Part shown: positions 46,231 through 62,549 of the stretch, one piece after another
How the letters are laid out: each line of letters begins with the position of its first letter
Position numbering within the stretch: the first letter of the stretch is position 1
IMG/VR virus record: IMGVR_UViG_3300032225_001437
Location: 32,001-96,000 of that record
From: a virus
Taxonomy: Duplodnaviria > Caudoviricetes
DNA length: 64,000 nt
Direction: 5' to 3' (one strand)
Program-made: the position numbers and the translations under genes
The notes under the pieces: model-generated
What the model was told of the DNA's origin: nothing
Database searches by the model: none
The model's input: the letters and a program-made list of their open reading frames with translations, nothing else

Positions 46231-46824
46231 CTATTTGATTCCGATCTTCATGTAGTCTTCATACAGGCCATCTGGATCTGTTAATTCCAGTGTATTTTGG
46301 TATAGAGTTTTGGCAATAGGCCATGCCCGATCAAACTCTGCAAAATTTTTGTATTGATTAACGGCACCGGGATCGCGGTTGCGAGCTTGGAGCACAACCA
46401 TGGTGCCGTTAGGAATATTATCCAACCATGCCTGCCCTTTGATGTTGTGACAGCTCAAATTGATTACCAGGCCATTGCGGCCAAGTTGTTGATACGTTAA
46501 TTCATTGGCATCTTTGAGCATGGGCTCAGTTTTGTTGTCCAAACCCAATTTGGCCAATCGTTGTTGTCCGACCCTGAGTGCCGTGTCATTGTTATCAACA
46601 TTGATAATTTGATCAAACGTGATATACTTGTTAAGCATAAACAACAACAAGGCCACATTGCCATACCAAGATCCTAAAATATAAATGGTGTCAAAGCGAT
46701 TTTTAATTTGAGATAAAGTGGCAACGGCCCAGAATCTTTCCAGATTGAGACTACTGCCGTTACTACCGGTCAAGGTATTTGGATATAGTTCAACAAGGGG
46801 AGTAAGGATTTCTTGGGCGATCAT
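46231..46824 (-). CDS. class I SAM-methyltransferase-like protein
   Basis: IYILGSWYG, NVD, VINLSC; start MIAQEILTPLVE. Confidence 0.65.
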   Translation of the reverse strand: MIAQEILTPLVELYPNTLTGSNGSSLNLERFWAVATLSQIKNRFDTIYILGSWYGNVALLLFMLNKYITFDQIINVDNNDTALRVGQQRLAKLGLDNKTEPMLKDANELTYQQLGRNGLVINLSCHNIKGQAWLDNIPNGTMVVLQARNRDPGAVNQYKNFAEFDRAWPIAKTLYQNTLELTDPDGLYEDYMKIGIK

Positions 46825-46861
46825 AACCATCATCCTCAGGGTATACAGGGTAGTCGTTCAT
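46790..46861 (-). CDS. 23-aa peptide
   Basis: MNDYPVYPEDDGYDRPRNPYSPC*; ATGA overlap with the upstream stop. Confidence 0.35.
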   Translation of the reverse strand: MNDYPVYPEDDGYDRPRNPYSPC

Positions 46862-47490
46862 TTGCCATCCACATGCAATTGACTGCCTTTGTTGAAGCTG
46901 GGACTCCATGGACTATTGGCCACACGCCCGCCTTTGCTTTGGCTCCATGCATAGCCAGCTCTGTGACCCGAACAGTCTTTGGTACAAGTTGATCCTAAGA
47001 AACTGAGTTCGTGTAATTCATCTTTTAAAAATGTGTCAGCAAAGGCTTTGCATAATTTTTCAATTTTGGGATTGCGTGTAATTTCTAAGTGGTACTGTTT
47101 GTGTCCAGGTTCTTGTGTAGGATCTTGGTAGCCGGCATAGACTTTATGCACACCAACTTCATCTATTAGATCACTACAGTTAACACCTTCGCGTTCTGAC
47201 ATGGCCTGTGTGCATGGACTACAGGTTGTGATAATAATACTGCCTGCAGGTATAGAACCAAAGCGGGCATGGTAACTGTCTATAGCGGCTCGTTCGCCAT
47301 GCACACGTTTGCCGTCTTGGGTAGGGTAGTTGATACCAACTACACAATTATTATCAGGATCCAACACAGCAGCCGCGACCATACCTAGGTCTTGATCTTT
47401 TTGTTGACCTTGAATCACCAGTGAACACAACTCAGTTAGAATTTGATCTAACTTGTTGTGATTGCGAATTTCAAAATCAGCAAGTATCAT
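46858..47490 (-). CDS. zinc-dependent (cytidine/deoxycytidylate-type) deaminase-like protein with a C-terminal Cys module
   Basis: VHGERAAI, TCSPC...NC; after LHE comes CTKDCSGHRAGYAW. Confidence 0.7.
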   Translation of the reverse strand: MILADFEIRNHNKLDQILTELCSLVIQGQQKDQDLGMVAAAVLDPDNNCVVGINYPTQDGKRVHGERAAIDSYHARFGSIPAGSIIITTCSPCTQAMSEREGVNCSDLIDEVGVHKVYAGYQDPTQEPGHKQYHLEITRNPKIEKLCKAFADTFLKDELHELSFLGSTCTKDCSGHRAGYAWSQSKGGRVANSPWSPSFNKGSQLHVDGK

Positions 47491-50400
47491 TAAGCACCAA
47501 GAATTTGTCGTACTTGATTGACATAAGCACTGACGTCGCTGGTGCCTATTTCATCCACATCGCCTACATTGTAAGCAACTTCTTCGGCGGCCTGCATGAC
47601 TTTGTCAGGACCAAACTGCATGAGCAGGTCTGTGTGTGCTACCATGATACGATTAAGAATAGCACGTTCGACAGCATCACTACTGGTAGAACTTTCTTCA
47701 GTTAACCCGGCCTTACGTGCTGCAAACTCCAAGTCTAGCAGGCGTTGACGAATATAATCTCTATCTTGTTTGTCTAACCCTGGTACATTTAGTTGTTGTT
47801 GTAAATGATCACGTTTGTCTAGATAATCTTCTTTGTTTCTCAAAGGATTGTGACCAGAACGATTAGGAGTAGCTTCGCCCAACTCCATATCTTTTCGATC
47901 TTTGGCACGTTTACGAGCATAGTCAGTCTGTGGATTCTTAGGCAGGGGTTTTACTGGACGACCAGCATCTACATCACGTTCACGCTGACGACGCTTAGAA
48001 TAATCTGTCGAGCCTTCCGCCACACCTTGCTCTTTGTGTTTCTTAATATCGTTGGCAAATTGTTTCTTGGTGGCTTTTATAATTCCGCTAAATCGTTTAT
48101 CACCACGCTCAAAGTTGCCTGCCTTGTCAGCGGCACCAGCATCTAAGGCAGCAGCCTGTTTGTATTGAGCTAGTTTTTCTGTTGATAGTTCATTCACAGT
48201 AGACTCTTCTACCTCGCCTACTGATTTGGCACGGTTATATTCATCGTAGCCGTGATATACTTTGGCTTTTGCTTGAGAAACTCGTGATTGTGGGTTAAGT
48301 CTATTTGATACTATTTTCGCGACCATTGGGTCAACCGGTTCGGATTTTTTCTTTGGTTCGGATTTTTTCTTTGCTATAAAACCCAATAGTCCTTCGTCAA
48401 GTTGATCATCTGAGAACTCCATAAAATCATATGGTCCCCAAGGTTGGCCGGTGCGGCCGTCATTGCCATCTAGATCACCATGCTCATAGTAGTCATCACT
48501 ATATATTTCTACACCGTCAAAGTCTGAGTTGTAGTCAATATGCAGTTTACGTGTTTTGCCATCAGGACAAACAATGCCACGATTCAACAAGCGTTCTACA
48601 TCTTCTTTGCTTTTAATACCTTTTTGCAAACTGCCAGTGTTGAATGTGCCATTGTACCAGGCACTTGCCAGGGCTTGGAAATAATTGCCTGATCCTCCAC
48701 CTTGCCCTGGTGCAAATTCTTTCAATGAGCCGCCTTGTGCTTTAGCAGCCGCTTCACGCTTCTTGCGGAAGATTTCGCGGAAGTAATCGTCATCCTCTTC
48801 CGGGCTGTAAGGATACGGATTATGTTCTCTGCTGGATTGTTTGCGCGGACTATCACCTGGACGGTCATAATCAATGCCTGGTAAATCTTCCGGTCTGCCT
48901 TCCGCCATGCCTTGTTTCTGAATCCGGTCAGCATAGAACTCGCTGGATGCAACCTTGCCACCGTTTTTGGCAGCATAAGTCTTGGCACCTGTATGCGTTT
49001 TAAACTTTACAACTTTATTACCGTTGTAGACTACCCATGAGCCAGTTGGATCTGCTTTGGCTTCTCTATACTGTTCGGGCTTATATACCTTTAGTGTAGA
49101 AGCATCATCACTATAAGGACTGACTTTAGGATTACTTGGTGCGGTCATTTGATCCAACATCTGTTGTGCTTGTTCTACACCTATCAAGTATCTACCAACT
49201 CTGTTTGGATCTGCTGCCCGTTGCAAATATTCCTTACTGTATCCGGTTGATGCCGCTTGCGGTTGTGCAAACGGCAAGGGCGCAACCTGTTGCTTGCCGT
49301 TGGCTCGTGCTTGTAGTTCTGCTTTGGCATCATCGATACTTACCATTGGACGTGGATGTTCGCCAGATGCTACTTGTTGTAGATATGGTGTTCCGAATTG
49401 ACTTAAATCGGCAGCTTGAGCATGACCAGCACCACCCAATGCACTTAGGCCTACCATTGCGGCGCCGGCTAAATTACTTTTCCAACCTTCATCTAATTCC
49501 TCATCATACCAATCATTCTCTTCCTCTTGGTCAGCGTAGTCGTTATATGCAACATCACTTAGATGCATACTGTGTTTGCCGTGATTGTATAAGTTAACAA
49601 TAACAAATGTGCCACTTGGACTGAGGTCGTAAATTTCTCCAGTCTTGCCTTCGAACTCGTTAGGTGCTGTAACAACAACAGGATCACCACGTTGTAAGCG
49701 TTGACCTTCGTTTATAGATTCTGCCGCTCGTCTCAAACTTTGAACAGGCGGTTGTGTTTCTGCGTCGTTGTCTGGGAATAAGTCAACAACATTACCACCT
49801 CTCATGCTAGCGGGTGCTGGACCATTGGCAACGCCTTGAACTTGTCTTGGTTGTGCCAAGCTCCGAGCCATCTGACTCATTGCATTGGATTTTGATTTAA
49901 ATTGTTGCACAGGTTCAGCCGGTTCAGCTTTGGCTGCAGGTTGAGCCGTCTGGGCTTGAGGTTCTGCATCTGCCGGAGCATTTGGAATTAAATTAATTGT
50001 GCGAGATTGCGATCTATCAGCAGTATCAGCGCCGTCAGACTGACTTGGGCCGCCCATTTGATCAATTGCCTGTGCCAAATTTGCATTGGTTCGTTCCACG
50101 TGTGCCAACTGTTGCTCCAGGCGATCGTTTTCATTGTCTAAACTACCAATTTCCTTGCCTTGTTTTCGATCCAGGGCCACTAGCTGTTGTAGCAGTCGAT
50201 CTTGTTCGGTGTTGGCACCTTTGATGGCTGACAATTGTTGCTGGCTTCGCTCGTTGGAATCTATTTCACTTTTGGCCACAGCTTCCACATCGCTTCGGGC
50301 CGCAGGATATTGAGCACGAAGTTTTTGTAACTCTCTAGCAACTTTAACATCGCCAGCAACTACATCCGAATTGGAGTTAAACTTTTTTTTTTCTTGTAGC

Positions 50401-51251
50401 GGCAGTTCGCCTTGTGCAGGAATGCCTGGAAGTTCGGGTTGGACTGCACTATGCCAACCTAATCGTTTCAACGTGGTCAAAACTTCATCTGCGCTGGGCA
50501 ATACACGATAGATAAAATGATTTTTCATTTGATCATTTTCTAAGCCATCGTAATAGTCGCTGATTAAATCAATACCGTTTTTATCTAAATGAATGTTGTC
50601 TTTGGGGTTAGGAAACTCTAATGTAACAGTAGGAATATTACTCATGTTGGCTTTAAGTAATCGTTGGAAATTACCTGTACCAAATGCTCGCGGTGACTGC
50701 TGATAATCGCCATATGGTTTGGTTTCCTCAGCAAATGCCTCTGGTGGATTTTCTTTGAGCATACGTTCTACTTGTGCAACATAAGCACTGACATCACTTG
50801 AACCAATTTCTTCAACGTCACCCACATAGTCGGCTACATTGTCAATGGCTGCACCTACCAGTTCAGGACCGTATTGTTTTAATAAATCATGACGTTGCAT
50901 TAAAATACGACGAGTAATTGCGCTGGCCACTGGGCTTGAATTAGAGTCTTCACCGACTACAGTGCCGTAACCCATGCAATCATCTAGTTTGCCTTTGGTT
51001 GTGCCTAATGTGCCACTGGCGTTCATGCCTGTGGCTGGATTGATTTTAAAATAACTGTCGCGTTCGGCTTTGATTTTTTGAAACTCACGCTTAAGAGCAT
51101 CACGCATTTTTGGATTTGCACCTTTGGCACGATCCAGTAGATCTAACATTTTCATGTTTAGGTCATCGATGCGACGAGCTTCAAGATTATCTACTGCACC
51201 TTCTTTGAGTTCTCGTTCATATTTTGTGTTGAATAGATCTAATGCAAACAT
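47490..51251 (-). CDS. large modular protein (putative internal head polyprotein)
   Basis: Short modules separated by LKE/VGE/LQE/INE/LDE/MAE/VNE/VAE/LTE; duplicated module (QYGP/QFGP...GDVEEIGSSDVSAYV). Confidence 0.7.
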   Translation of the reverse strand: MFALDLFNTKYERELKEGAVDNLEARRIDDLNMKMLDLLDRAKGANPKMRDALKREFQKIKAERDSYFKINPATGMNASGTLGTTKGKLDDCMGYGTVVGEDSNSSPVASAITRRILMQRHDLLKQYGPELVGAAIDNVADYVGDVEEIGSSDVSAYVAQVERMLKENPPEAFAEETKPYGDYQQSPRAFGTGNFQRLLKANMSNIPTVTLEFPNPKDNIHLDKNGIDLISDYYDGLENDQMKNHFIYRVLPSADEVLTTLKRLGWHSAVQPELPGIPAQGELPLQEKKKFNSNSDVVAGDVKVARELQKLRAQYPAARSDVEAVAKSEIDSNERSQQQLSAIKGANTEQDRLLQQLVALDRKQGKEIGSLDNENDRLEQQLAHVERTNANLAQAIDQMGGPSQSDGADTADRSQSRTINLIPNAPADAEPQAQTAQPAAKAEPAEPVQQFKSKSNAMSQMARSLAQPRQVQGVANGPAPASMRGGNVVDLFPDNDAETQPPVQSLRRAAESINEGQRLQRGDPVVVTAPNEFEGKTGEIYDLSPSGTFVIVNLYNHGKHSMHLSDVAYNDYADQEEENDWYDEELDEGWKSNLAGAAMVGLSALGGAGHAQAADLSQFGTPYLQQVASGEHPRPMVSIDDAKAELQARANGKQQVAPLPFAQPQAASTGYSKEYLQRAADPNRVGRYLIGVEQAQQMLDQMTAPSNPKVSPYSDDASTLKVYKPEQYREAKADPTGSWVVYNGNKVVKFKTHTGAKTYAAKNGGKVASSEFYADRIQKQGMAEGRPEDLPGIDYDRPGDSPRKQSSREHNPYPYSPEEDDDYFREIFRKKREAAAKAQGGSLKEFAPGQGGGSGNYFQALASAWYNGTFNTGSLQKGIKSKEDVERLLNRGIVCPDGKTRKLHIDYNSDFDGVEIYSDDYYEHGDLDGNDGRTGQPWGPYDFMEFSDDQLDEGLLGFIAKKKSEPKKKSEPVDPMVAKIVSNRLNPQSRVSQAKAKVYHGYDEYNRAKSVGEVEESTVNELSTEKLAQYKQAAALDAGAADKAGNFERGDKRFSGIIKATKKQFANDIKKHKEQGVAEGSTDYSKRRQRERDVDAGRPVKPLPKNPQTDYARKRAKDRKDMELGEATPNRSGHNPLRNKEDYLDKRDHLQQQLNVPGLDKQDRDYIRQRLLDLEFAARKAGLTEESSTSSDAVERAILNRIMVAHTDLLMQFGPDKVMQAAEEVAYNVGDVDEIGTSDVSAYVNQVRQILGA

Positions 51252-51261
51252 TTATTTTTCC

Positions 51262-51945
51262 TTATGCTTCGTCGATGTAATCTGCTGAATCGTCTTTTTT
51301 ACGCTGACGTGCTGTAAACATCTCCAGGGCCATCTCAGCCTCATCTAAATTTTTAAAACGTGTAGGTAATCGACGATTGCCACGGTGTATTTCAAAGCCA
51401 GTTTTTTCGTCGCCGTGAACTTCCCATAAGCCACATTCGTTAGTGATAGTTTTAACTGCGGTGCTTTCTTTCATGCTGACACCTTCTTCACCGGGTGGTT
51501 GTTGGGCTGGAATTACACCACTCAATGCGGCGCCCAGCTCGCTGTCTTCGTTTTGTTTGGCAACCAAGGCGCGATCTTTTGTGTCTTTTTTCTTCAAGTC
51601 TGTGTCATCTGATTTTTTGTCTTTAAGATCAGAATCTTGCTTGACTTCGTCTGCTATAGATTTTAAGTAATCAGCAAATGATGCTTTAACTTTGCTGAGA
51701 GTATCTTCGCTGGTAACTGCTTCTTCCAATGGCTCTTCGTCTAGTTCTTCTGATTCTTCGCAACCACCAACCAACTTACCGCCCATTGGATTCTTGGGAT
51801 CTGTTCGGGCTGTGAGCACTGCTACCGTTTTTGGTCGGAAGGTTGCTGAAAGCTGATTTACACCGCGTTGATTCTTATCCAGTCCTTCTTCCAGAACACG
51901 GAGACGTTCAACTATTGAGTAGATATCGTTATGGTCTTGTGCCAC
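51262..51945 (-). CDS. acidic putative virion/head protein
   Basis: LEE, LDE and MKE motifs; AAGGA SD. Confidence 0.6.
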   Translation of the reverse strand: MAQDHNDIYSIVERLRVLEEGLDKNQRGVNQLSATFRPKTVAVLTARTDPKNPMGGKLVGGCEESEELDEEPLEEAVTSEDTLSKVKASFADYLKSIADEVKQDSDLKDKKSDDTDLKKKDTKDRALVAKQNEDSELGAALSGVIPAQQPPGEEGVSMKESTAVKTITNECGLWEVHGDEKTGFEIHRGNRRLPTRFKNLDEAEMALEMFTARQRKKDDSADYIDEA

Positions 51946-51948
51946 GGA

Positions 51949-52389
51949 TCATGCCCTTGCTTCTTTCAAATAACTCTTGAGTTGCCACATGTATTTGCCA
52001 TGAGTGGCCATGCGATCTGCAGCAAAGTTTGCTATATCATCGCGTCCTTCGGCAGTAGATGCATCAAACACCTGCTTGCTCATGTCTATCATAGTTTGTG
52101 TATCTGCGAGTAATTCTTCTAACATCAATCGGGCACGAGGAACCTTGATCTGGTCCTGTATTTGTGTTAATTCGTGGAAGCGTGTAAGACTTCCGGGTGC
52201 ATATTCTTCCATAGTACGAATGAATTCAGCTATGACATCAACTGCTTCAAATGCATCTTCGTAAATTTTTTGTAGGAATTTGTGCAGCTGGCCAAAATCC
52301 GGACCCTCAACATTCCAGTGAAACATGTGCGCTTTTAGATAATAACTAAAAGTGCTGGCCAAGTAAGTTTTTAATAAATCAGCTAGCAT
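51949..52389 (-). CDS. dps: Dps / ferritin-like protein
   Basis: KAHMFHWNVEGPDF..LH, D..AE..R, HGKYMWQL. Confidence 0.93.
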   Translation of the reverse strand: MLADLLKTYLASTFSYYLKAHMFHWNVEGPDFGQLHKFLQKIYEDAFEAVDVIAEFIRTMEEYAPGSLTRFHELTQIQDQIKVPRARLMLEELLADTQTMIDMSKQVFDASTAEGRDDIANFAADRMATHGKYMWQLKSYLKEARA

Positions 52390-52598
52390 TATTTCTTCCG
52401 TTTATACTTTTTATATTCTGCAGGCGTGTTAGGCGTTGCATCGTCAGTAGTGTATTTAGCACCCGTAAAGAAGTTGCCACCATTTCTCTTAATCATACCA
52501 CCTAGCGGCATGGCTACAGGGGCTATACTACCTGCACAAGTGGACCCTGCACTGGCACCGCCATTTTCTCGTAAGTCAACAAATTCATGCAGTCTCAT
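52389..52598 (-). CDS. small protein with a capsid-targeting-like N-terminus
   Basis: MRLHEFVDLRE followed by a GGASAGSTCAGSIA module. Confidence 0.65.
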   Translation of the reverse strand: MRLHEFVDLRENGGASAGSTCAGSIAPVAMPLGGMIKRNGGNFFTGAKYTTDDATPNTPAEYKKYKRKK

Positions 52599-52894
52599 TG
52601 GTACGGAGCCTCATCGGTAATTGTTAAGACATTATTTTTAATAGTTCCGGGTCCAAAATCCACACGCATATCGGTTACAATTAGATCAGCCAAGTGCGGG
52701 GGAACCAATTCATGACGTATGGTGTATTCTCCTGGTTCGGCTTCAATTTGTATAAGTTCTTCAAGATAGTGTTCGGTCCAACGCCAAGCACGTTCGGCAA
52801 ATAATTCATCGTTGACGTAGGTGCGATAAATGGGTTGAAAACTTTCCCATTCGCAATCGATATTACACAGCACCCGTATGAATTGTTTGGACAT
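52595..52894 (-). CDS. hypothetical protein
   Basis: YRTYVNDELFAERAWRW; preceded by TAAATA. Confidence 0.7.
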   Translation of the reverse strand: MSKQFIRVLCNIDCEWESFQPIYRTYVNDELFAERAWRWTEHYLEELIQIEAEPGEYTIRHELVPPHLADLIVTDMRVDFGPGTIKNNVLTITDEAPYQ

Positions 52895-52912
52895 GCTGTA
52901 TTTAGTAGCGTT

Positions 52913-53101
52913 TTATTTGACTTCTTTTACGCTACCAACATGCCATTCTTCTACACCGTATTGTGCCCGCATTAATCTACGTGCTTCTGTGGCTGTAGCG
53001 GCAGTCACAGTGACATCAATCCAGCCCACATAGTTGGGCTGTTGTATACGGACCTGGGCAGTCCACAGTCGATACTTGGGATAGATATCTCGAGCTTTCA
53101 T
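52913..53101 (-). CDS. hypothetical protein
   Basis: Start MKARDI, overlapping the upstream stop. Confidence 0.65.
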   Translation of the reverse strand: MKARDIYPKYRLWTAQVRIQQPNYVGWIDVTVTAATATEARRLMRAQYGVEEWHVGSVKEVK

Positions 53102-54807
53102 CTTCCAGTCCATTTGGCAATCATGCTGACATATTGACTTGAATAGATACCAGTGCCGGATCTGGTGCTGCGCATACTACGCCGTCCGGGCTCTACAGGA
53201 AATGTAAAACGAGTCCAAGTATCATTTTGATCCACAACTTTGTCACCGGGTTTTGGGCGATATCGGTCAGTGGATTCCATCGCATAACCCATGACTTCTA
53301 CTCCGGGAATACTGCTCAACATGAGCCACATCTGTTGTCCAAATTTGGTCTGTTGATCACCAGCTTCGATAGTAAGTTTTAGTATGCTTAAGGCGATGCC
53401 ATATAACGCCTTGCCCAAGCCGCGGCCACGATAGTCTGGATCAGTTATTACTGTTTCAACACGCCAGGTCTTCAAGGGATCAAGGGTGGCAAACAGATCC
53501 AGTTCGGCGGCTAGTGTGTCACCGTCAAAGATCATAATTTCCATAAATTCAGGATCGCCGCGGTTCACAGCATAGGTGAAACCACTGCCGCCGGGCAAGG
53601 GTCGACGATTCTTGGGCGGAGTCGTCATAGGCTCCAGTGTGTCTTTGTCTCCCCATCCACCCAGTTCGCTTTGTGGTATGCGGGCTATTTCCATAATACC
53701 AGTATTGCGACGTAAACGCAAATCAAAGTCTACGTCTGATATATAGTCACGAATAAATCGTTCATAATACTTTTGTGCAAGAGCAGGAGTATCTGCTTCA
53801 AAGCGATCTACTATCTGTGCTGACCCTGCAGGACGATCTGCATGATAAATTTCGTAACCTTTGTTCAAGCGTTCACGTGCTTGAGCCATGCGGTCCATTC
53901 TATTACTAACTTGCTGATCAGCGCGACTCAAGTAACTTTGCAAACGTTCGTCACTGATTTCATTGACATCTTGTTTACGAACTGGCTTCCAATGAAATAC
54001 AGTCATGCCCATGCTGGGATATTCTTCATGCGCCCACTTTGGTCCTAAAATGTTCTGCACCACTGGCACAAAATATCGACGATACAGGTTGGCGCGGTTG
54101 TCACCTTTGGCAGTAAATGATATGCCGGGTGGACGTGCTTTGGCAACATATTCAGGCAATTGTTGTTTGATCACGTTGAGCACTGTGCTCAATATTCGAA
54201 CAGTTGACTTACTAGCACTTGTAGGCTGACTTGGAGCATCATAGTCGCTGTTTACAGCGAATGTAATGTGTAATGTGCCATTAAACTCACTGCGATCAAA
54301 GAACACATCTACCCAATGGCCATCCACAGTAGAGTGAAATAAGCTGCGCTTTCTTTTGCGATTGGGTTTGTAGTCGGCTGGTGCGTTGCCTAATTCTGTC
54401 AGTTGTTCGACCGGCACCCAGGCCTGGATATCTGATCTATTCAACAGGTTAGCAGCCGCCCAAGCTCTGTGATTGCCATCTATGATCCAACCTTTGGAGT
54501 CTACCACAATAGGTCTACGATCCACAAAGTTTGCACTGTATTCACCCGCATGGTCAGGGTCTACAGTTTGCACTCGATTGTATGGATCTTGTTCGGGCTC
54601 TTGTTCTTCGTCATCGTACTCTTGATCAGGTATATGCAAACTGTTTAATGCAACACGTCGTAGTTCATACTGCGGATAGCGCAGGATCAATTTTTTTAAA
54701 AATCCACCACCCTGTTGGTCTTTGGGGTGTATGCCATCAACATAATTCCACACCTGTTCAGCTGACACAACTTTGGCAGATTCAATGACAAATTCACGGG
54801 CTTTCAT
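53098..54807 (-). CDS. modular protein: ParB-like domain, two unknown modules and a GNAT acetyltransferase
   Basis: MKAREFVIE; PIVVD..IIDGNHR; DPDYRGRGLGKALY. Confidence 0.75.
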   Translation of the reverse strand: MKAREFVIESAKVVSAEQVWNYVDGIHPKDQQGGGFLKKLILRYPQYELRRVALNSLHIPDQEYDDEEQEPEQDPYNRVQTVDPDHAGEYSANFVDRRPIVVDSKGWIIDGNHRAWAAANLLNRSDIQAWVPVEQLTELGNAPADYKPNRKRKRSLFHSTVDGHWVDVFFDRSEFNGTLHITFAVNSDYDAPSQPTSASKSTVRILSTVLNVIKQQLPEYVAKARPPGISFTAKGDNRANLYRRYFVPVVQNILGPKWAHEEYPSMGMTVFHWKPVRKQDVNEISDERLQSYLSRADQQVSNRMDRMAQARERLNKGYEIYHADRPAGSAQIVDRFEADTPALAQKYYERFIRDYISDVDFDLRLRRNTGIMEIARIPQSELGGWGDKDTLEPMTTPPKNRRPLPGGSGFTYAVNRGDPEFMEIMIFDGDTLAAELDLFATLDPLKTWRVETVITDPDYRGRGLGKALYGIALSILKLTIEAGDQQTKFGQQMWLMLSSIPGVEVMGYAMESTDRYRPKPGDKVVDQNDTWTRFTFPVEPGRRSMRSTRSGTGIYSSQYVSMIAKWTGR

Positions 54808-56033
54808 CGCATGGCCACTTGATAGGATTTAAATTGATCCTGGCGTGATTGCAGACCTTTGGATGCTGGATTGATTTTTTTAGTAACATCACCGGTATTG
54901 CTAAAGTCTTTGATTTTTGGAGCAACGCGGTTTTGCCAATACCATACAGCCACTTTGGCTGCAACGTCGGGTCTGGCTGCCAAGTCCGGTTGCTGTGCTA
55001 GCGGTAGGCCCAATGCAGCCCCAGCACGAGTGTAATTGTCACGTCCGGTCAACTGTATATAACCACGTCCTTTGTAGCGTTCACCATCACCTTTGACTTT
55101 GTTGCCCAGTATTCGCGCAGTTTTTTTGTGTTGTTCATACTTTTTAGTAAAGTAAGCTGGTGAGCCACGTTCTTCCATGCTGGCAAAGTTAGCACTTTCG
55201 TGAGCGCATTGCGCCAAGAACTGTGCCAGTTCTGTGCCTTGTATGCCACTGGCCATGGCAACCTTTTTTAATTGCTCCACTGGTCCTGCTTGTTGTGCAG
55301 GCGCCTGAACTTGTGTAACAGGTGCTTTTGCTTGTGGCACAGGTTGTGTCATTTTTGCATTGGCTGCTCCGCCACCTAGAGCCATTGCTCCGGCCAATGC
55401 AGCACCACCTAAGGCACTTTTCCAACCTTCTTCTAAGTCTTCTAGTTCTTCAGCTGGCCAGCTGATAAAACTGTTGCCATTGACGTCACCAGCGCGAACA
55501 ACAAATGCGCCGCCGTTGTCATAGCCTTCGTCCTGGCCAATTTCCCAGCCCATTGCGGCCAAGGTACGTTCGGCACGAGGATCTTCATCACCTTGCCACC
55601 ATTGAGAGGCCAACCGATGTAGTATTTCTTCTTCGTTGGGCTCTTGATCATCACGCTCGGGACTGGGAGCAAATTCATCTAATTCACTTTCCCATACCTG
55701 ACCTTCTTTGCCGCGATTCTTATCCCAAAATGCCTTGCCAGCATCTGTTTGAGCATCACTGCGCTCTACACGATAACCGAGGTCTTTGGCCCAGTCATAC
55801 ATTACGGCCGCAATACCTTGGCCACGATAATTTTCATCAACCCATAAATCTTGTGCTTCTAATTGATTATCACCGTATTGTAGAAATAATACTCGACCTA
55901 ATTCACGTCCATGACTCGAAGCAGTTATTTGAAAATCTTTGCCTACTATAATAGATTCCAAATCTAATCCATCCCTATGCACCGTTTGTTCGTTAGGGTG
56001 GCGGTACTCTGTGATGAATTCTTTAAATCTCAT
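54804..56033 (-). CDS. modular protein: GNAT domain plus GH19 (chitinase/lysozyme-like) domain
   Basis: MRFKEFITE; WVDENYRGQGIA; AQFLAQCAHES...YKGRGYIQLTGRDNY. Confidence 0.85.
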   Translation of the reverse strand: MRFKEFITEYRHPNEQTVHRDGLDLESIIVGKDFQITASSHGRELGRVLFLQYGDNQLEAQDLWVDENYRGQGIAAVMYDWAKDLGYRVERSDAQTDAGKAFWDKNRGKEGQVWESELDEFAPSPERDDQEPNEEEILHRLASQWWQGDEDPRAERTLAAMGWEIGQDEGYDNGGAFVVRAGDVNGNSFISWPAEELEDLEEGWKSALGGAALAGAMALGGGAANAKMTQPVPQAKAPVTQVQAPAQQAGPVEQLKKVAMASGIQGTELAQFLAQCAHESANFASMEERGSPAYFTKKYEQHKKTARILGNKVKGDGERYKGRGYIQLTGRDNYTRAGAALGLPLAQQPDLAARPDVAAKVAVWYWQNRVAPKIKDFSNTGDVTKKINPASKGLQSRQDQFKSYQVAMR

Positions 56034-57916
56034 TAGCAGTTCCAACGACGACGTGCCTTGCAAATAGCTTTATCTGGAGTCTTGGCACATGAAATGTTGT
56101 GCATCTTCATTTGACCACGTGATCGTGAGCAATAACTCTTACGACGCTTGCTGGCTTTTGAACCCTTCTTTAACTTGCTGGGTTTAGTAGTCACAGCAGT
56201 TTGTAATTTTGAACCAGGATGCTCACGGCGATATGTTTTGACTGCTTTGCGGCTCATACCGTCGGTCTTGTCACGGTTGTTGGCTTTTTGCCAGGCTTCA
56301 GTTTCCATAATGGTTGTTGTAGTTGCAAATACATACAATTCATCGTCATCCAATGATTCTAAGTCTTCCCAAATTAATTCAGCATCTACACCATTGCGTT
56401 CAGCAATAGTATCAATGATTGATTCAATTAGATCAAACTCTTCGGCAAGTTCTTTATTATAATTAAATCTGGCAACTTCTTTGCCATCTACATAAGCAAG
56501 TAATGGTGCGCCGGGCATTTTAGCCTGGAGCCATCTTACATTAGGATATTTTGATTTAACCTGAGCCATCCAAGTCTTTTCATCTGGTGCAGATTCGTCT
56601 ACTTTGCGCCAGCCTATTTTTTTACCATCTGGAAGATAAGCAACAACCGGACCATCAATCATTTTAGCCTGAGCAATTCGGGCGCCAGGAAATTTGGCCT
56701 TGACTAAGTCCAGCCATTCCTGTTGAGTGCGACCTTTGTCATCAACGGCTCGTTTGAAATCTGAATTACCTTCTGACATTTCGGTGCGAAGTGCTTGTCT
56801 AGCTACACGACTAATCATTGCTGGACTTACATCAGTGTTACCGCGACGAGCAGATTTAATAATACCAAAAATATCAGCTTTACTAAGACCAAGCCCAAAT
56901 AACCATTTTAACATACCTTTCAACATACTATCAGTAGAATATCCATTGTTGTGCATATATTCCAGCGGAGTTAAGTCCGGATCCTCAACGGTTTGATCTA
57001 AGTAATCTAAAATTTGTTCCTTGCTCATAAACGCTTTGTGTTTAAAGGCCCATTCAATCTCGACTAGTTTAGCATTTTGAGAAAAATCTTTTAACAACTC
57101 TTGTTTTTTTCGTCTTACTTCCTTAGGCCACTCAGTGGTCCAATAATCAGAATTAGGTTCTACAGTTGGCGAGGTAGGCAGTCTAACAGGACCATCACTT
57201 GTAACACGACCACCATCTTCGTGCATGCCTGAAGGTGGATTAGCGTAGCCATCTTTAAGCAATCGCACAATAGCACTTGCTTGTTTGTTATACACTTTAG
57301 GTAGATACTTGGCAGCTATGTCGGCATTTTCATAAGCATCACTGCCATCATAGGCTGTAGCATCAATAGCATCGGCTTCGGCATCACGCAACTTTCTGCC
57401 CGTGCTTTGATACTTGGCAATTTCTCGTTGTAGATATCCTGCTTTAGGTGCCCACTCGGCTACTACAGCTTGCCATTCTGGACTATTGGCAAATTCTTCG
57501 TCATAGTCAGATAAGTTTGTATCGCCTAATAAATCTTTGAATAAATTTAGTGACATCACAGACATAATATCATCACCTGAACGAACTATATATTCGTTAA
57601 GTTTAATGCTTTCGTTAGGTACACAGTTACGAACTTGTCCGCCGTTCTTGCCTTTCTTGGTGCCTTCGGCATGCTTGCCAGGCCAGCAACGGGTATAACC
57701 ATTTGAATCTTTTTGACCTTTACGAATCTCATTTAGATTGCCGTGGGTTTGGCACATGCCACAGTCTTCACAGACCATTTCCATAGCAATACTTTCGTTA
57801 TGCTTTTTCTTACCAGCACAGTGAGCTCGTTGTGAGAAGCCTTTGGGATGGCTACAGTTGATACTGTTTTTGTATTTTTGACTCCACTTTTCAGTGATGA
57901 ATTCATTTGCTTTCAT
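56033..57916 (-). CDS. modular protein with basic/Cys modules (putative internal head polyprotein)
   Basis: MKANEFITE; modules INCSHPKGFSQRAHC, RCWPG..VRNCVP, KRRKSYCSRS..ARRRWNC; tandem W...VKxKxP..QAKM repeat. Confidence 0.7.
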   Translation of the reverse strand: MKANEFITEKWSQKYKNSINCSHPKGFSQRAHCAGKKKHNESIAMEMVCEDCGMCQTHGNLNEIRKGQKDSNGYTRCWPGKHAEGTKKGKNGGQVRNCVPNESIKLNEYIVRSGDDIMSVMSLNLFKDLLGDTNLSDYDEEFANSPEWQAVVAEWAPKAGYLQREIAKYQSTGRKLRDAEADAIDATAYDGSDAYENADIAAKYLPKVYNKQASAIVRLLKDGYANPPSGMHEDGGRVTSDGPVRLPTSPTVEPNSDYWTTEWPKEVRRKKQELLKDFSQNAKLVEIEWAFKHKAFMSKEQILDYLDQTVEDPDLTPLEYMHNNGYSTDSMLKGMLKWLFGLGLSKADIFGIIKSARRGNTDVSPAMISRVARQALRTEMSEGNSDFKRAVDDKGRTQQEWLDLVKAKFPGARIAQAKMIDGPVVAYLPDGKKIGWRKVDESAPDEKTWMAQVKSKYPNVRWLQAKMPGAPLLAYVDGKEVARFNYNKELAEEFDLIESIIDTIAERNGVDAELIWEDLESLDDDELYVFATTTTIMETEAWQKANNRDKTDGMSRKAVKTYRREHPGSKLQTAVTTKPSKLKKGSKASKRRKSYCSRSRGQMKMHNISCAKTPDKAICKARRRWNC

Positions 57917-60900
57917 TTTTGTGTCCTCTACGCATATTTAGTTGCCAACGGGCCAGCTGTCCTTTACGTCCTTTAGCATGGCTGGCCTTTTCTAGTTCGG
58001 CCATGGTGGCATGTTTGGGTATGCCGTGACGCTGACTATCGCCTGGACGTCCTGGGCCTTTGCCATCAGAAAAGTTTTCAGCTACACCAAATTGATTACC
58101 CAACTGTTTTGCTAGACTTTTTTGTCTATTGATATTGGCCGGAGTGCCTGTGCCACTTTGTTTGTGATCAAACACGCCATACAATTTGATCACAGTAGGA
58201 TCACGTCCATCAACACTGTAGAACAAACTGAAATCTCTAGTCAAATGCACGTGACGTAATTTTGGCACTTTGGCCAAGGGCCCAGCAGACACAAACGGTG
58301 TGTCTTTGCCCCAGGGCTGTCCAGGGTGTTCAGTTTTAAATGCTAAAAATTCTTGTATCTTGCTAGGCAAGTTTGGAAATTGATTGGCTTTGTCAGCCAC
58401 GGTCTGATCAAACAAACCGCTCTTTCTAATTTCAACTCGGTTGTTGGACTCTAATAACATCCAAGTGCCTTGGTCGATTTCAAACAGTAAATTACTCAAT
58501 GCTTGTTCTGCACTTTCAATCATAACTGGTAACACTTCAAGGTTACCGTCAAAGTTATTTTCCCTAGCCCATAGTGCGGCTATTCTGTTGGCATCAGCTT
58601 GATTGTTGCCTACCCCACGGAATCTATACACTTCGCGTCCTAGGCCGTCAACTACCTGCCACTGTCCTGAGAACTGATTGCCAAAGTTTTGTGCTACGTC
58701 TACAGGAACTTCTGGAATTTGGCCAACAGGACGCATACCTACACTGGCATTAGGATGTCCGTACCTACGAACTATGTCTTGACGCACTGCTTCGGCTTGA
58801 TCACGACTAGCGCCATTTACTGTATCAATTACATTGCCAGTTTCTGTGCGATAAAATTCCCAATCTCCTTGGTCATTATCCTGGCTTGTAGATGGAACTG
58901 ATCCAGTTAATCTAGCCTGTAAGTCTTGACTGTCTTGCTTATCGTCGGCACTTTGTGGCCGTTCAGCGGTCTGTGGACGAATTTCTAAATTGTCTGTGTT
59001 CTCAAAATCGTGTAGCACAGCTACCTTGGCCAACAATCTTTGTGCTTCATCTCGGTCAACACGTAATATATTATCAATTACACGACCTGTTGGTTTGTAA
59101 ACAACTTCCCAATCGCTTTTTTGTTTTGGTTCAACAATGCGTTTGGCCAATTTGGCACGTGGTGTAAGTGTCTTGGGATCCACATAAGGGCGCACATTAA
59201 AGCCGATACCTTGGTTGGCATACTTGTCAAATACTTTGTCAGCAGCGGCACCCCGATTGGCACCTTGAACTATTTCAAGAGTTGCACCAGTTTTAACATC
59301 GTAAACTTCCCACTCTTGATTGTCACTCATGTTGACCAATTGATATTCACCTGAGTCCAAGGCTTCACGACCATACTTGGCCCAGACTCTGTTCTTGACT
59401 TCGTCTTCTTGCATGCCACGATATTCAGCACCGGGCACCGCAGTCCAGACACCATTGACCTTTTGATATAGTTTGAAGTATTGATTTATTTTCCGTTCGT
59501 TACCAATGGTCTTTTCGGCCCAGAGTTTCTTGAGTTGTTCTTTGTTTAACTCGCCGGCGGCAAATTGACTAAACAGGGCCAACTGACTGTCACCTTCGGG
59601 AGCAATCAACTTGTATAACTTCTTGGCATACTCTCTACGATCAGCACTTGGGTCAGCGGCAATCTGCATGGCACGGGCATACCGCAACATTGTGCTGGTT
59701 AATTTTTCAGGATCAGCTGACTCTTCAGCCAACCAGTCACCTCCGGCACTACGGAATTCAATATAGCCATCTTGTATATGAGCACTAGTATACTTGCCCT
59801 GTCCTACGCCCTTTTGAATTTCTTTTTGTGCCAATTCAAGCAAGCCATGTTGCATCAGCTTCAAAGCACCAGCAGGATCTGCACGGCCTGACTTGAGGTT
59901 TTCACGGAAGCCTTTCATTGCTGACTTGGTATAGGTGTTGGCTTCTCGACCAAACTGCTGTAGAACATATTCGTCACCTAGGAACAGGATCAGTTTTAAA
60001 TAGTCAACATCACCGCCCTTGTATGGCACACTAACGCCCATGTGTAGGCCTGTTGAATCGTTGGTATAAGCATTACCTTCGCTGGGATCATTTGCCCAGT
60101 CAGTAACTGCTTGTAATTTTTCCAAGGCCATCAACAAGGGCATAGGAGGACTTACAATTTCTAAACCCATATCTTCGCGGTCATCTGCGCTGAGGCTTGA
60201 ATCGGGTTCTACAATCCATTGGCCTTCTCTGCGTGTGGTGCTGTGGTAATTGTTACTGACTTTGACCGGCATACCCACAACACCGTTTAAACTGTCGCCA
60301 ATTGAGTCCCAATCACGTCCACCATCGTTGCCGCCACCACCGGTCATGTAGGGCCAGTCTAGGTTGTATTCACTAGCAACATCACTCATCCAACGTAGGC
60401 CTACATCGTCAAAGAAGCCGGAATCATCATCAATCTGATAATTGTCGCGGAAGTCATCTAAGGCGGCATCCCAGTTTGCACCTTGTTTACGCACTTCATC
60501 ATCAACCAGTTCGTTTAATAGGTCTTCTGCTTCTTCTTGTGCAGTTAAGTATTTTTCGTATAAGGGATTGGCTTCTGCGTATAATATTTGTTCTTTGCTC
60601 GAGTTAAATTTAGGTGCCCGCTCGCCAGCATTGACAATGTCATTTATTTCATCATCTGACAGGTCCAACAAGGCCAACTGCTTTTGTATTTCGTTGTCAA
60701 GATCCCAGTCGCCTTCGTCTACCATGACTTTACGGATTAGGTCTTCAGCTTCGTTGCTAAAGTCTTTTTGCATTTGCTCGTCGTACCACTCCATATACTG
60801 CTCGTCTAGTCCGTTTTGCAAGTTGTTTTCTTGACGCGAACTTAGGCCGCCATATTCACCACTGTTGAAAAAGTCTATAATCTGACTGATACTACGGCAA

Positions 60901-62483
60901 CGCTCGTCCTGATCGTAGTCAGGTTCCATTTCATAGTCACTGTCGCCATTGTTGGTGGTGTCACGGAAGATCAACTCGGCTTCAAAGCCGGCACGTATGC
61001 CCTTGGCTTCGTCGCTGGTAGCCCATTTCATCAGTGTCGACGGACTCATATTAACTTCATCCAACTGCTCTACTGACTCGGCTACTGTGGTCTTTTTAAA
61101 TTGTGATAGCTCTAGGGCTAGTTTTTCAAACAGGCCATTTGGATTGGCCACCTGTGGAACGCCTTGTTTATTGGTTTTTAAATTTAACTTGTTGGCTTCT
61201 TTACCAATTTGTCCTGGCTTGATGTCCACTGTGAGTGCCATACTGTAGCGTGGATCCTTGGCCTGTTTCTTGGTAGGAATGTATCCCGAAGCCGATTCTG
61301 CTATTTCATCCCCGTGTAGTTCTTCGGCTTGGCCCACAGCAAAATATTCTGGATGTAGTCTAGCATAATCACGCATGAGTATGCCGGCACGAGCATTGGC
61401 TTCGTTTTCATACGGACTGCCGGTTTCACCTGCATCTGTAGGAACTGACTCACGCTCGTGTTGGTGACGATGTGTAAGTTCGTGTGCCACTGTGCGTAGC
61501 ACATCCATGATATGTCGCTGGCCCCAGGCCACTTCTAATAAATTATGGTCGTCAATATAACGACCAAATGTTTTGTTACGCACTGACCATTCAGGATCTT
61601 TGCGTAGTTTGACCACTGGCATGCTTTTGAGTTTTAATTCTTTAAAACAAAAATCAATAAAGTCTTTAAGAATCTCTTCGTCTGTTAAACGAACCGACTC
61701 TTCTTCAAGACCCACTGGATCAGCTTCAACTACTGTAGGGGTTCGAAATCCGTATGTAACTCGAGGCTTAACTTCTTTTTCTGCCAAACTAAATTCTCTA
61801 TCCTTGGCAGCATTTCTAGCATCATACAGGTCTTTGATTAGGCCTTGACTACGCAACATTTTAAATGCCAAATTTTCTGGACCAAACTCGCCGTGTGCTT
61901 CTAAGCCTGTTTGACGCATCCGTTTAATTTTGTCTGCTAAACGTGTCATGCGTTTTAAATTACCTGACTTAATGGCTCGCTCAATCTGTCGACCAACCTT
62001 TTCAAACTTATCTCTTGTGCTGGTATCATCCACCACACTTTTAACTCTACGTGGAACTTGCAACCAATCATTGTTTACGATAGAATAGATGCCTTGACTG
62101 ATGTGCGGTTGATCAGCATCTTGCACATATAATTCTACATCAGCACCGCCAATTGTGATATCATGCTGTTCGTTATACTGAAATTTTTTGGCATCAAACA
62201 GTTCACGGTAAACAGGATCGTCGGGCATGTTGACCACTAGGTGCAGATCAATATCACTGTTGGGAGTATATGTATAGGCCGCATTTGATCCGCTGATGGT
62301 AATGTCTTGAATTGCTAGATCTGTTACGCCTAAAAATTCACGAAAATCGTCGGCTATTTCCAGCAAGCGTTCACGCACTTCGGGGCGCAAATGCTCACGA
62401 TCATCCCACAAGCGTGGATTTAAATGATCGTTAAATTTAACAGCGTCGTCAAGATTATAAGAGTCTAATTCCGTGATGTTCAT
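57903..62483 (-). CDS. multidomain protein: Pol-beta-type nucleotidyltransferase, HExxH peptidase-like, amidoligase-like, repeats, RelE/YafQ-like domain
   Basis: SGS..SDIDLH; AHELTHRHQHE; GFEAE, DSSL, LEIVSP, STGLHM, IEFR; LRHVHLTRDFSLFY..GVFDH. Confidence 0.75.
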   Translation of the reverse strand: MNITELDSYNLDDAVKFNDHLNPRLWDDREHLRPEVRERLLEIADDFREFLGVTDLAIQDITISGSNAAYTYTPNSDIDLHLVVNMPDDPVYRELFDAKKFQYNEQHDITIGGADVELYVQDADQPHISQGIYSIVNNDWLQVPRRVKSVVDDTSTRDKFEKVGRQIERAIKSGNLKRMTRLADKIKRMRQTGLEAHGEFGPENLAFKMLRSQGLIKDLYDARNAAKDREFSLAEKEVKPRVTYGFRTPTVVEADPVGLEEESVRLTDEEILKDFIDFCFKELKLKSMPVVKLRKDPEWSVRNKTFGRYIDDHNLLEVAWGQRHIMDVLRTVAHELTHRHQHERESVPTDAGETGSPYENEANARAGILMRDYARLHPEYFAVGQAEELHGDEIAESASGYIPTKKQAKDPRYSMALTVDIKPGQIGKEANKLNLKTNKQGVPQVANPNGLFEKLALELSQFKKTTVAESVEQLDEVNMSPSTLMKWATSDEAKGIRAGFEAELIFRDTTNNGDSDYEMEPDYDQDERCRSISQIIDFFNSGEYGGLSSRQENNLQNGLDEQYMEWYDEQMQKDFSNEAEDLIRKVMVDEGDWDLDNEIQKQLALLDLSDDEINDIVNAGERAPKFNSSKEQILYAEANPLYEKYLTAQEEAEDLLNELVDDEVRKQGANWDAALDDFRDNYQIDDDSGFFDDVGLRWMSDVASEYNLDWPYMTGGGGNDGGRDWDSIGDSLNGVVGMPVKVSNNYHSTTRREGQWIVEPDSSLSADDREDMGLEIVSPPMPLLMALEKLQAVTDWANDPSEGNAYTNDSTGLHMGVSVPYKGGDVDYLKLILFLGDEYVLQQFGREANTYTKSAMKGFRENLKSGRADPAGALKLMQHGLLELAQKEIQKGVGQGKYTSAHIQDGYIEFRSAGGDWLAEESADPEKLTSTMLRYARAMQIAADPSADRREYAKKLYKLIAPEGDSQLALFSQFAAGELNKEQLKKLWAEKTIGNERKINQYFKLYQKVNGVWTAVPGAEYRGMQEDEVKNRVWAKYGREALDSGEYQLVNMSDNQEWEVYDVKTGATLEIVQGANRGAAADKVFDKYANQGIGFNVRPYVDPKTLTPRAKLAKRIVEPKQKSDWEVVYKPTGRVIDNILRVDRDEAQRLLAKVAVLHDFENTDNLEIRPQTAERPQSADDKQDSQDLQARLTGSVPSTSQDNDQGDWEFYRTETGNVIDTVNGASRDQAEAVRQDIVRRYGHPNASVGMRPVGQIPEVPVDVAQNFGNQFSGQWQVVDGLGREVYRFRGVGNNQADANRIAALWARENNFDGNLEVLPVMIESAEQALSNLLFEIDQGTWMLLESNNRVEIRKSGLFDQTVADKANQFPNLPSKIQEFLAFKTEHPGQPWGKDTPFVSAGPLAKVPKLRHVHLTRDFSLFYSVDGRDPTVIKLYGVFDHKQSGTGTPANINRQKSLAKQLGNQFGVAENFSDGKGPGRPGDSQRHGIPKHATMAELEKASHAKGRKGQLARWQLNMRRGHKNESK

Positions 62484-62504
62484 AGATAGTATTTACCGGA
62501 TAAA

Positions 62505-62528
62505 CAAAAGCCGCTGTCAAAGCGGCTT
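62505..62528 (-). terminator. intrinsic terminator
   Basis: AAGCCGCT-TTGAC-AGCGGCTTTTG. Confidence 0.75.
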
Positions 62529-62549
62529 GTGTAGATCAAACAAACAGGT

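Follow-up and report, generated by a model that had tools for sequence, protein, structure and literature searches.

The 64,000-nucleotide window analyzed here comprises bases 32001-96000 of a single 156-kb phage contig from IMG/VR (IMGVR_UViG_3300032225_001437), for which CheckV gives a completeness of 43%. Between positions 46231 and 62483 of the window lies an unbroken run of genes on the minus strand, in which, in several cases, the stop codon of one gene overlaps the start of the next (TAATG, ATGA); every gene and joint of this run located below is on that strand. Some of the encoded proteins begin with a peptide similar to the capsid-targeting sequence (CTS) of the T4 internal proteins (IPs), here called the leader, and several are chains of modules, here called cassettes, whose borders, or joints, carry a hydrophobic-x-Glu motif. 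Based on sequence comparison, this gene string probably encodes head-internal cargo of a T4-superfamily jumbo phage, which would be loaded, cut apart, and delivered with the DNA. The closest counterparts of the DNA polymerase in the window belong to Sinorhizobium phage Phosso and Agrobacterium phage Atu_ph07 (47-50% identity), with other T4-superfamily jumbo phages of 350-490 kb coming next; the enzyme is less than 60% identical to every phage record, and no near-identical DNA was found in the GenBank phage collection.

An earlier note on this DNA had listed six similar N-termini. All six are present at the genes named, but only four fit a single motif, M[KR]xxEF[IVL]x(1-3)E, namely MKAREFVIE (54807), MRFKEFITE (56033, an ATG that overlaps the upstream stop as TAATG), MKANEFITE (57890..57916, the start of a 627-residue protein), and MRLHEFVDLRE (52598). 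A six-frame scan of the whole 156-kb contig gives five matches to this motif, four of them at these four adjacent gene starts. The other two N-termini, MIAQEILTPLVE and MNITE, are kept in relatives, yet each alone is within chance, and judged against the motif they are not the canonical leader. A DNA pattern back-translated from the leader, permitting two to three variable residues after the Lys/Arg, finds the three canonical leaders of the window, and in T4, used as positive control, it finds exactly the three ip genes ipI, ipII, and ipIII (MKTYQEFIAE twice and MKTFKEFIKE).

Related loci, amounting to 1.8 Mb of IMG/VR sequence fetched using two window proteins, contain 160 unique leader-headed open reading frames (ORFs) of 54-952 residues. 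Their consensus is M-R-A-x-E-F-[ILV]-x-E, with only M1, E5, F6, and E9 near-invariant and with [ILV]-x-E at residues 7-9 in 146 of the 160. The similarity among these ORFs stops after Glu9, and their first modules represent at least 54 mutually unrelated groups, which makes the leader modular. Synonymous codons vary at every conserved position of the leader (Arg, Ala, Glu, and Phe), which indicates that selection acts on the peptide. Complete relatives hold 2-7 strict copies each, clustered on the same strand, and the reversed pattern used as a control gave zero matches in them. Moreover, an IMG/VR-wide scan with one codon version of the leader DNA returned at least 120 matches and at least 185 further unique leader ORFs.

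For the analysis of the joints, modules that stand directly behind the leader in one protein were used, and the start of the same module was located inside other proteins. The motif [ILVMF]-x-E occupies exactly P3-P1 in 177 of 307 unique internal contexts, the background being 2.0%, versus 0-29 occurrences at each of the other offsets between -30 and +30. The same result was obtained in independent leader-selected loci, with 31 of 86 at offset 0 and at most 8 at any other offset. The P1 Glu is almost invariant, P2 is free, and P3 varies among Leu, Ile, and Val, with Phe and Met also found; at the level of these residues, the joint rule is the cleavage rule of T4 gp21. Neither Phe at P4 nor Met at P9, which would be remnants of the leader, was seen when looked for at internal joints. 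That only P3 and P1 are kept would be expected if one leader targets the protein and each joint merely needs cutting.

In the window, hydrophobic-x-Glu at module borders proves real for about 20 sites, where BLAST breakpoints fall and modules of relatives start straight after the Glu; tblastn ranges against relatives also coincide with the joints. The P1 Glu of the joints in a 569-residue protein is kept in 12/12, 25/25, and 33/33 cases versus fractions of 0.48-0.67 for its other Glu residues, and in a 1526-residue protein the P1 Glu is kept in 28/28 and 23/23 across diverged homologues. Relatives in which the downstream cassette lies directly or nearly directly behind the leader confirm LTE138 and VNE283 of the 569-residue protein, LNE63 and IME538 of the 627-residue protein, and VAE1469 and LDE476 of the 1526-residue protein; L[DE]E before the residues GWKS in proteins of 409 and 1253 residues is likewise confirmed by leader-then-cassette relatives. 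These comparisons indicate that cassettes are shuffled between related phages exactly at the P1 Glu.

Behind its leader, the 627-residue polyprotein (56033..57916) carries small Cys/Lys-rich cassettes and an uncharacterized middle part, and it ends in a DUF6321 cassette, in which the Pfam match begins at residue 548. The module after joint LNE61-63 (57728..57736; Glu 25/27) stands directly behind the leader in L102:5151-5711, and in L128:8405-9511 the leader is followed directly by the same cassette that here follows joint IME536-538 (56303..56311), that is, DUF6321. No homologue of this protein was found in Phosso or Atu_ph07.

The 409-residue protein (54804..56033) consists of the leader MRFKEFITE, a GNAT domain, an acidic cassette, an LEE joint, a Gly/Ala-rich hydrophobic stretch, and a GH19 domain (Pfam Acetyltransf_1/7 and Glyco_hydro_19; phrog_181 endolysin, 7e-39). 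The joint LEE200-202, numbered from the ATG at 56033 (55428..55436; Glu 13/15), precedes GWKS, the hydrophobic stretch, and GH19, and the same module follows the leader and (EQ)LDE in L118:11917-12693 and L116:7584-8246. The muramidase-like GH19 domain could be an ejected cell-wall enzyme or the lysis enzyme of the phage. As a separate observation, GWKS with the Gly/Ala-rich stretch resembles the signal-anchor-release domain of SAR endolysins, both here (54804-55436) and at ~49390-49496 (residues 586-620 of the 1253-residue protein).

The 569-residue protein (53098..54807) begins with MKAREFVIE, followed by a ParB-like lead (residues 10-138), a GNAT fold (139-283), a helical cassette (284-373), and a GNAT domain (374-569). 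At joint LTE136-138 (54394..54402; Glu 12/12) tblastn matches break, and the cassette after it (LGNAPADYKP...) lies directly behind the leader in L114:9989-10450. The cassette after joint VNE281-283 (53959..53967; Glu 25/25), which starts ISDEKLQDYLSRA..., lies directly behind the leader in L116:9983-11413, and various cassettes come after this same Glu in relatives. Joint IME371-373 (53689..53697; Glu 33/33) is marked by tblastn ranges of 370/371/373-569. A tblastn search with this protein in the GenBank phage collection gave no match.

Residues 1-290 of this protein were modeled with AlphaFold2 using collinear homologues, the mean predicted local distance difference test score (pLDDT) being 69. 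Values below 50 are found at residues 1-5, 135-146, and 282-290, segments that cover the start of the leader and joints LTE136-138 and VNE281-283. An exhaustive VIA structure search assigns a GNAT fold to residues 140-277 (Z 7-8, with acetyltransferases making up almost the entire top 50), which is exactly the cassette between these two joints; Foldseek on the same model gave weak GNAT matches only, and the fold search did not resolve the ParB-like domain. This cassette (53959-54393) has no Pfam match, and with its GNAT fold recognized by structure the 569-residue protein has two acetyltransferase-type modules and the region three.

Two further genes are small. The 69-residue protein (52389..52598) joins the 11-residue leader variant MRLHEFVDLRE to a basic body of 58 residues and represents the commonest leader-bearing family in relatives (27 unique copies). 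The 66-residue protein (52913..53113) has a decayed-looking leader (internal MKARDIYPK); in L084:11710-11913 its module is preceded by MRATEFLCE, and L100 has MRAQDIYPK.

The 1526-residue polyprotein (57903..62483) begins with MNITE, its relatives sharing the N-terminus MNIxELD, and contains a nucleotidyltransferase (NTase, 1-235), a zincin (262-396), a small cassette (397-469), and an amidoligase region (477-~984). Toward the C-terminus, it continues with several unknown cassettes, a RelE/ParE-like lead (1324-1469), and a basic NF.DGK cassette (1470-1526). Pfam NTP_transf_2 and Amidoligase_2 are above cut-off, and the protein corresponds to phrog_36119. After the NTase, which stands alone in other phages, high-scoring segment pairs end at 233-238, around joint LAE233-235 (61779..61787; Leu 24/24, Glu 22/23). 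After the zincin, joint IAE394-396 (61296..61304) lies in a breakpoint cluster at 388-400. Joint LDE474-476 (61056..61064; Leu/Ile 28/28, Glu 28/28) precedes the amidoligase cassette, which in L119:6091-8949 follows the leader and QQLDE, and joint VAE1467-1469 (58077..58085; Glu 23/23) precedes the NF.DGK cassette, found directly behind the leader in six relatives. The AlphaFold2 model of the zincin cassette has a pLDDT of 84, with disordered tails of pLDDT below 50 that hold the flanking LEE and IAE sites. Its HExxH...E motif is invariant and kept in at least 33 relatives; the domain resembles minigluzincins, IrrE, and Wss1, the best Pfam matches being Peptidase_M78 and DUF6782, with MPTase-PolyVal marginal (2 of 34 relatives, E 0.035).

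The 1253-residue polyprotein (47490..51251) has a conserved N-terminus, MFALDLFN, and no recognizable enzyme. Breakpoints and conservation place joints at VGE101, LDE588 (before GWKS and the hydrophobic stretch), LKE845, VNE1021, VAE1079, and LTE1185. A long coiled-coil segment spans about residues 300-400, and a repeat of ~60 residues occurs at ~110-167 and ~1192-1253, each copy ending in ...GDV[ED]EIG[ST]SDVSAYV....

Downstream are a cytidine/dCMP deaminase of 210 residues (46858..47490; Pfam dCMP_cyt_deam_1, 1.4e-9) and a 200-residue protein (46231..46833) with a weak Hen1-type methyltransferase match. The deaminase begins with MILADFEIRNH in the window and with MRAxDFxIxN in many relatives, or else sits inside polyproteins of up to 2007 residues; its N-terminus might be a leader in which Asp replaces Glu5 and the last Glu is missing, so that targeting would take place without cutting. 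The module of the 200-residue protein is found in relatives behind VTE, ITE, or LEE, both N-terminally and inside longer proteins. Since both modules occur inside the polyproteins of relatives, both belong to the cassette pool.

The modules named in the earlier note are recovered in large part: Pfam supports the NTase, the amidoligase, two GNATs, GH19, and the deaminase, and the peptidase is a zincin by its invariant HExxH...E. The weak part concerns the methyltransferase, which depends on the marginal Hen1 match (E 0.05), and the ParB-like and RelE-like cassettes, which have no Pfam match and for which protein-atlas look-ups returned leads only; sequence searches of the PDB with these two and with the peptidase cassette were without significant match. 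Pfam further supports DUF6321 and a Dps-like protein in the window, and the third GNAT-fold cassette (residues 140-277 of the 569-residue protein) was missing from the earlier list. Leader proteins of relatives add NUDIX, an M23 peptidase with LysM, sigma-70 region 4, helix-turn-helix, DUF6934, and DUF6267 domains, most of these proteins having no known domain. Also, a twin-arginine translocation (Tat) signal is found straight after the last Glu of the leader in L101:184-2037 and L018:8641-9744 (MRAKEFLAE followed by ITRRDFLRGVGAAAG... and MRAREFVNE followed by DLTRRGFLRGLGAA...; Pfam TAT_signal, 3e-7). Removal of the leader would expose a clean Tat signal, so that such cargo might be re-exported in the next host.

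A link to virions comes from T4-like cyanophages, in which DUF6321 and the N-terminal Cys/Lys-rich cassette of the 627-residue protein recur. There, multi-cassette basic proteins (L135:2195-4746 in S-SM2, L137:1928-4245 in DSL-LC02, and L270:1096-2583 in S-SM1) are encoded between g16 and g17, with hydrophobic-x-Glu ahead of the cassettes, and adjacent small genes begin with MKTLKQFLKE or MKSFNQFLSE, which are 10-residue T4-type leaders. The family is T4-GC119 (for example, S-SM1 SSM1_115 and S-SM2 SSM2_109). SSM1_115 has matches in the C-terminus of the 627-residue protein (E 3e-11) and in several of the polyproteins that the jumbo relatives encode, and was detected in purified S-SM1 virions with 13 peptide counts (PMC3037559, Suppl. 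Table 8); the family is absent from S-PM2 (PMC3037559, Suppl. Table 8). Several GenBank records label its members structural or virion proteins, and tblastn with the S-SM2 protein matches 503 phage records, including Pelagibacter, Methylophilales, and Roseobacter phages.

A protease of the required type is present in the relatives. Peptidase_S77 occurs above the Pfam cut-off, once each, in seven of seven relatives that are at least 95% complete and in the closest relative, a 228-kb contig whose homologue of the 627-residue protein is 94% identical; it is also found in Phosso and Atu_ph07. The protease of the 228-kb contig (L267:1357-2004, minus strand) shares 36% identity with T4 gp21 across 158 residues, the HP and GVSSRG motifs being conserved; the gene order around it (acidic core protein, protease, coiled-coil scaffold, and gp23-like capsid gene) is that of T4. 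Among the phages examined, the leader was seen only in those with a gp21-type protease.

As for the genomic setting, the gene string adjoins the DNA polymerase and nucleotide/sugar-modification genes, not head genes. The T4 late promoter TATAAATA has one match in the 64 kb versus 3.6 expected, and none near the cargo genes. Just upstream of the 1526-residue gene, at 62484-62549, a GC-rich hairpin is followed by a T run, in the manner of a terminator, after which GGTAAATACTATCT abuts the ATG with no obvious Shine-Dalgarno sequence; translations of this upstream stretch resemble each other in relatives. Within the string, 51262..52389 encodes a conserved 227-residue protein and a Dps/ferritin-like protein (51949-52389; Pfam Ferritin, 2e-21), neither with a leader and both conserved and stand-alone in relatives. 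Nearly all relatives keep the gene of the latter, a DNA-binding iron protein, midway along the cargo string.

Taken together, the leader and joint grammar is solid on this comparative evidence. In mechanistic terms, the leader M-[RK]-A-x-E-F-[ILV]-x-E would be the counterpart of T4 MKTYQEFIAE, keeping the targeting Phe and the processing Ile/Glu, and would tether the protein to the scaffolding core during prohead assembly. Cleavage behind the Glu of [LIVM]-x-E by the gp21-type serine protease would come next, taking off the leader and dividing the polyproteins, at the exposed linkers between modules, into individual enzymes and small basic peptides; the pieces would remain in the head and exit with the DNA at infection. 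We infer scaffold binding, cleavage, retention, injection, and a role of the cargo in the host, which may lie in host takeover or anti-defense. The reading put forward in the earlier note, that of capsid-packaged polyproteins, is upheld in part, and strongly so in its central idea, the T4-like capsid-targeting leader with cassettes delimited by prohead-protease sites, and gains from the gp21-type protease in every near-complete relative and from the homologous cassette protein in S-SM1 virions. It did not stand for two of the six leaders, which are something else.

Several observations weigh against the cargo interpretation. The 1526- and 1253-residue polyproteins have no canonical leader, so their targeting would need a second signal, and the likeness of MNITE to the N-terminus of T4 Alt, described below, spans only 3-4 residues and is weak. 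Phosso and Atu_ph07, the cultured phages with the closest DNA polymerases, have no match to the leader DNA pattern. The predicted overall enrichment of [ILVM]xE is absent, with 69 instances in the five polyproteins versus 62.6 +/- 6.1 after shuffling and a density of 1.57% versus 1.40% in other ORFs; with the density at background, most of the ~70 instances are due to chance, and position alone carries the signal. On the 43%-complete contig itself, neither Peptidase_S77 nor Gp23 was found with Pfam, nor any of ten T4 head, tail, and terminase proteins (gp17-gp24, gp67, and gp68) with phmmer, and thus protease, portal, scaffold, and capsid genes are missing there; such absences are expected of a 43% fragment and are uninformative about the phage. 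A T4-GC119 member is annotated in Syn9 and was undetected in its virions (PMC3037559, Suppl. Table 8). Finally, the zincin of the 1526-residue protein, being well folded and minimal with its conserved motif, offers another candidate for the cutting.

This last point leads to the proposal that the proteins are ordinary polyvalent proteins cut by the zincin they contain, each by its own or one by that of another, the joints being zincin sites; self-processing of polyvalent proteins was indeed predicted by Iyer et al. 2017 (PMC5512222). We consider it very improbable here, since the joints obey the rule documented for gp21 (P1 Glu, P3 Leu/Ile/Val, and P2 free), the leader, like that of T4, also terminates in such a site, and most leader proteins with joints have no peptidase cassette. 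Moreover, we know of no zincin with a specificity for Glu at P1 and a hydrophobic residue at P3. Somewhat less improbable, and still not favored, is a scheme in which the proteins are targeted to the prohead and cut, but serve as scaffold or core filler like T4 gp22 and gp68, being broken down and expelled before the DNA is packaged. In T4, core proteins undergo cleavage at several L/I-x-E sites and leave the head (PMC9026906), and the long coiled coil of the enzyme-free 1253-residue protein would suit such a role, as would the many small, basic cassettes of no known activity. However, most cassettes are folded enzymes (GNATs, GH19, NTase, amidoligase, deaminase, and zincin, with NUDIX and M23 in relatives), which would be pointless as disposable material. 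The repertoire also turns over fast between relatives, as in an arms race, and relatives already own a separate gp22-like scaffold beside the protease.

The Tat signal or hydrophobic anchor that follows the leader in some proteins of relatives could instead point to a non-capsid address, such as a membrane, a secretion route, or a phage compartment, with joints that are uncut linkers or recombination seams, because shuffling of cassettes requires seams whether or not they are cleaved. This is as poorly favored as processing by the zincin: the leader agrees, residue for residue and with the processing residues included, with the T4 CTS as defined by experiment; its confinement, among the phages examined, to those with a gp21-type protease and the presence of a homologous cassette protein in the virion also speak for the capsid. 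Furthermore, recombination seams should be conserved as DNA, yet codons vary and only P3 and P1 are kept as amino acids. As for coincidence or recent gene duplication, the background-level motif density and the two weak leaders among the six might suggest it, but it is hardly credible: at least 54 unrelated families carry the leader with no similarity past residue 9, the motif count peaks sharply at offset 0 in both of the independent data sets, and the reversed pattern has zero matches. Coincidence or duplication is therefore refuted by the modularity of the leader and the replicated offset-0 spike.

Packaging, cutting, and delivery as cargo, the interpretation retained here, would matter because proteins injected with phage DNA act before phage gene expression and are prime candidates for anti-restriction, anti-defense, and host takeover. 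To our knowledge, injected proteins are almost unknown outside T4, P1, N4, and phiKZ-like phages, and have been unrecognizable from sequence. If the rule holds, the T4 capsid-targeting principle would extend to distant jumbo phages and to abundant aquatic T4-like phages, a single tag would serve, in a natural polyprotein strategy, to load many enzymes, and injected cargo could be read straight from metagenomic sequence. The cargo observed here comprises upward of 50 unrelated families, among them GNATs, NUDIX, cell-wall hydrolases, a sigma-factor fragment, and a RelE-like module, and the rule would be relevant to engineered protein delivery with T4-type capsids. A bolder proposal, which we put forward only tentatively and regard as rather unlikely, is that the leader and joint grammar is a general cargo language of environmental T4-superfamily phages, in which capsid cutting also arms secondary address signals. 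If so, a place behind a 9-residue leader or an exposed [LIV]-x-E joint would be enough for any protein to be loaded, released by cutting, and delivered, and some injected cargo would be re-exported to the envelope by the machinery of the new host (Tat signal; anchor and GH19 after LEE). It would also make it possible to list, from sequence alone, the effectors that uncultured phages inject.

Among the nearest known systems are IPI, IPII, and IPIII of T4. In T4, gp21 cuts after L/I-x-E, the first 10 residues of IPIII are enough for packaging, residues 4 and 7 of the CTS matter for targeting and residues 8 and 10 for processing, and CTS fusions package foreign proteins up to the size of beta-galactosidase (PMC9026906). 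The window proteins share with the IPs the key residues of the leader (M-K/R ... E-F-I/L/V-x-E, ending in an L/I-x-E site), its presence on unrelated bodies, variable loci remote from head genes, and a gp21-family protease in the lineage. However, the window leader has 9 residues instead of 10, and the window bodies have no sequence similarity to those of IPI-III, being chains of up to ~10 cassettes with further protease-type sites, whereas T4 IPs are single small basic proteins. The window phage itself is a jumbo phage of roughly 350 kb that is only distantly related to T4. T4 Alt is a packaged ADP-ribosyltransferase trimmed by gp21 at both ends. As a large enzyme packaged without an IP-type CTS and trimmed behind a short N-terminal I-T-E (MELITE), it may be compared with the 1526-residue protein and its MNITE, although Alt is a single enzyme with no cassette chain and, unlike Alt, the window proteins contain no ADP-ribosyltransferase domain.

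Polyvalent proteins, found in phages and conjugative elements and defined by two to fifteen unrelated effector-type domains, are predicted to accompany the DNA and to be processed into active pieces, with self-processing by an embedded metallopeptidase and packaging via MuF/portal association having been proposed (Iyer, Burroughs, Anand, de Souza, and Aravind 2017; PMC5512222). Like them, the window proteins bring together on a single chain a variety of such domains (zincin peptidase, GNAT, NTase, and a ParB-like lead), several domains per protein being found in the 1526-residue (NTase/zincin/amidoligase), 569-residue (GNAT fold and GNAT), and 409-residue (GNAT and GH19) proteins. In contrast, no CTS or prohead-protease-site link was proposed for polyvalent proteins, whereas a T4-type leader and joints conforming to the gp21 rule occur in the window; a jumbo-phage survey by the same group makes no mention of such a link. 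The linkage of polyvalent proteins to head-packaging genes (portal, terminase, and MuF) is also not seen in the window, and with Pfam no MuF domain was found in the window or in the leader-bearing proteins of relatives; the T4 ip genes are likewise remote from head genes. In the jumbo phages phiKZ, 201phi2-1, and SPN3US, a diverged homologue of gp21 processes many head-internal proteins behind the Glu of a three-residue motif, and these proteins enter the host by ejection (PMC9026906). Nonetheless, the motif there is S/A-x-E, and propeptides are removed with no separation of unrelated enzymes. For that inner body, no shared leader has been described and no sequence relationship to the window proteins is seen, and no inner-body families are among the PHROG and Pfam matches of the window proteins.

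The cyanophage T4-GC119 proteins, earlier listed as hypothetical or structural only, without leader, cleavage, or cassette logic, resemble the 627-residue protein and the polyproteins of relatives in their DUF6321 and Cys/Lys-rich basic modules and in the hydrophobic-x-Glu before cassettes, and differ in having small basic modules rather than enzymes and in lying within a packaging gene cluster. Literature searches returned no paper on DUF6321 or on CTS-led, protease-jointed polyproteins. The CTS and the gp21 rule are already known for T4 and its close relatives, whereas leader-tagged, protease-jointed polyproteins appear to be new as far as we could find. For T4, a review has already suggested that the CTS is perhaps an evolutionary device for loading varied proteins (PMC9026906).

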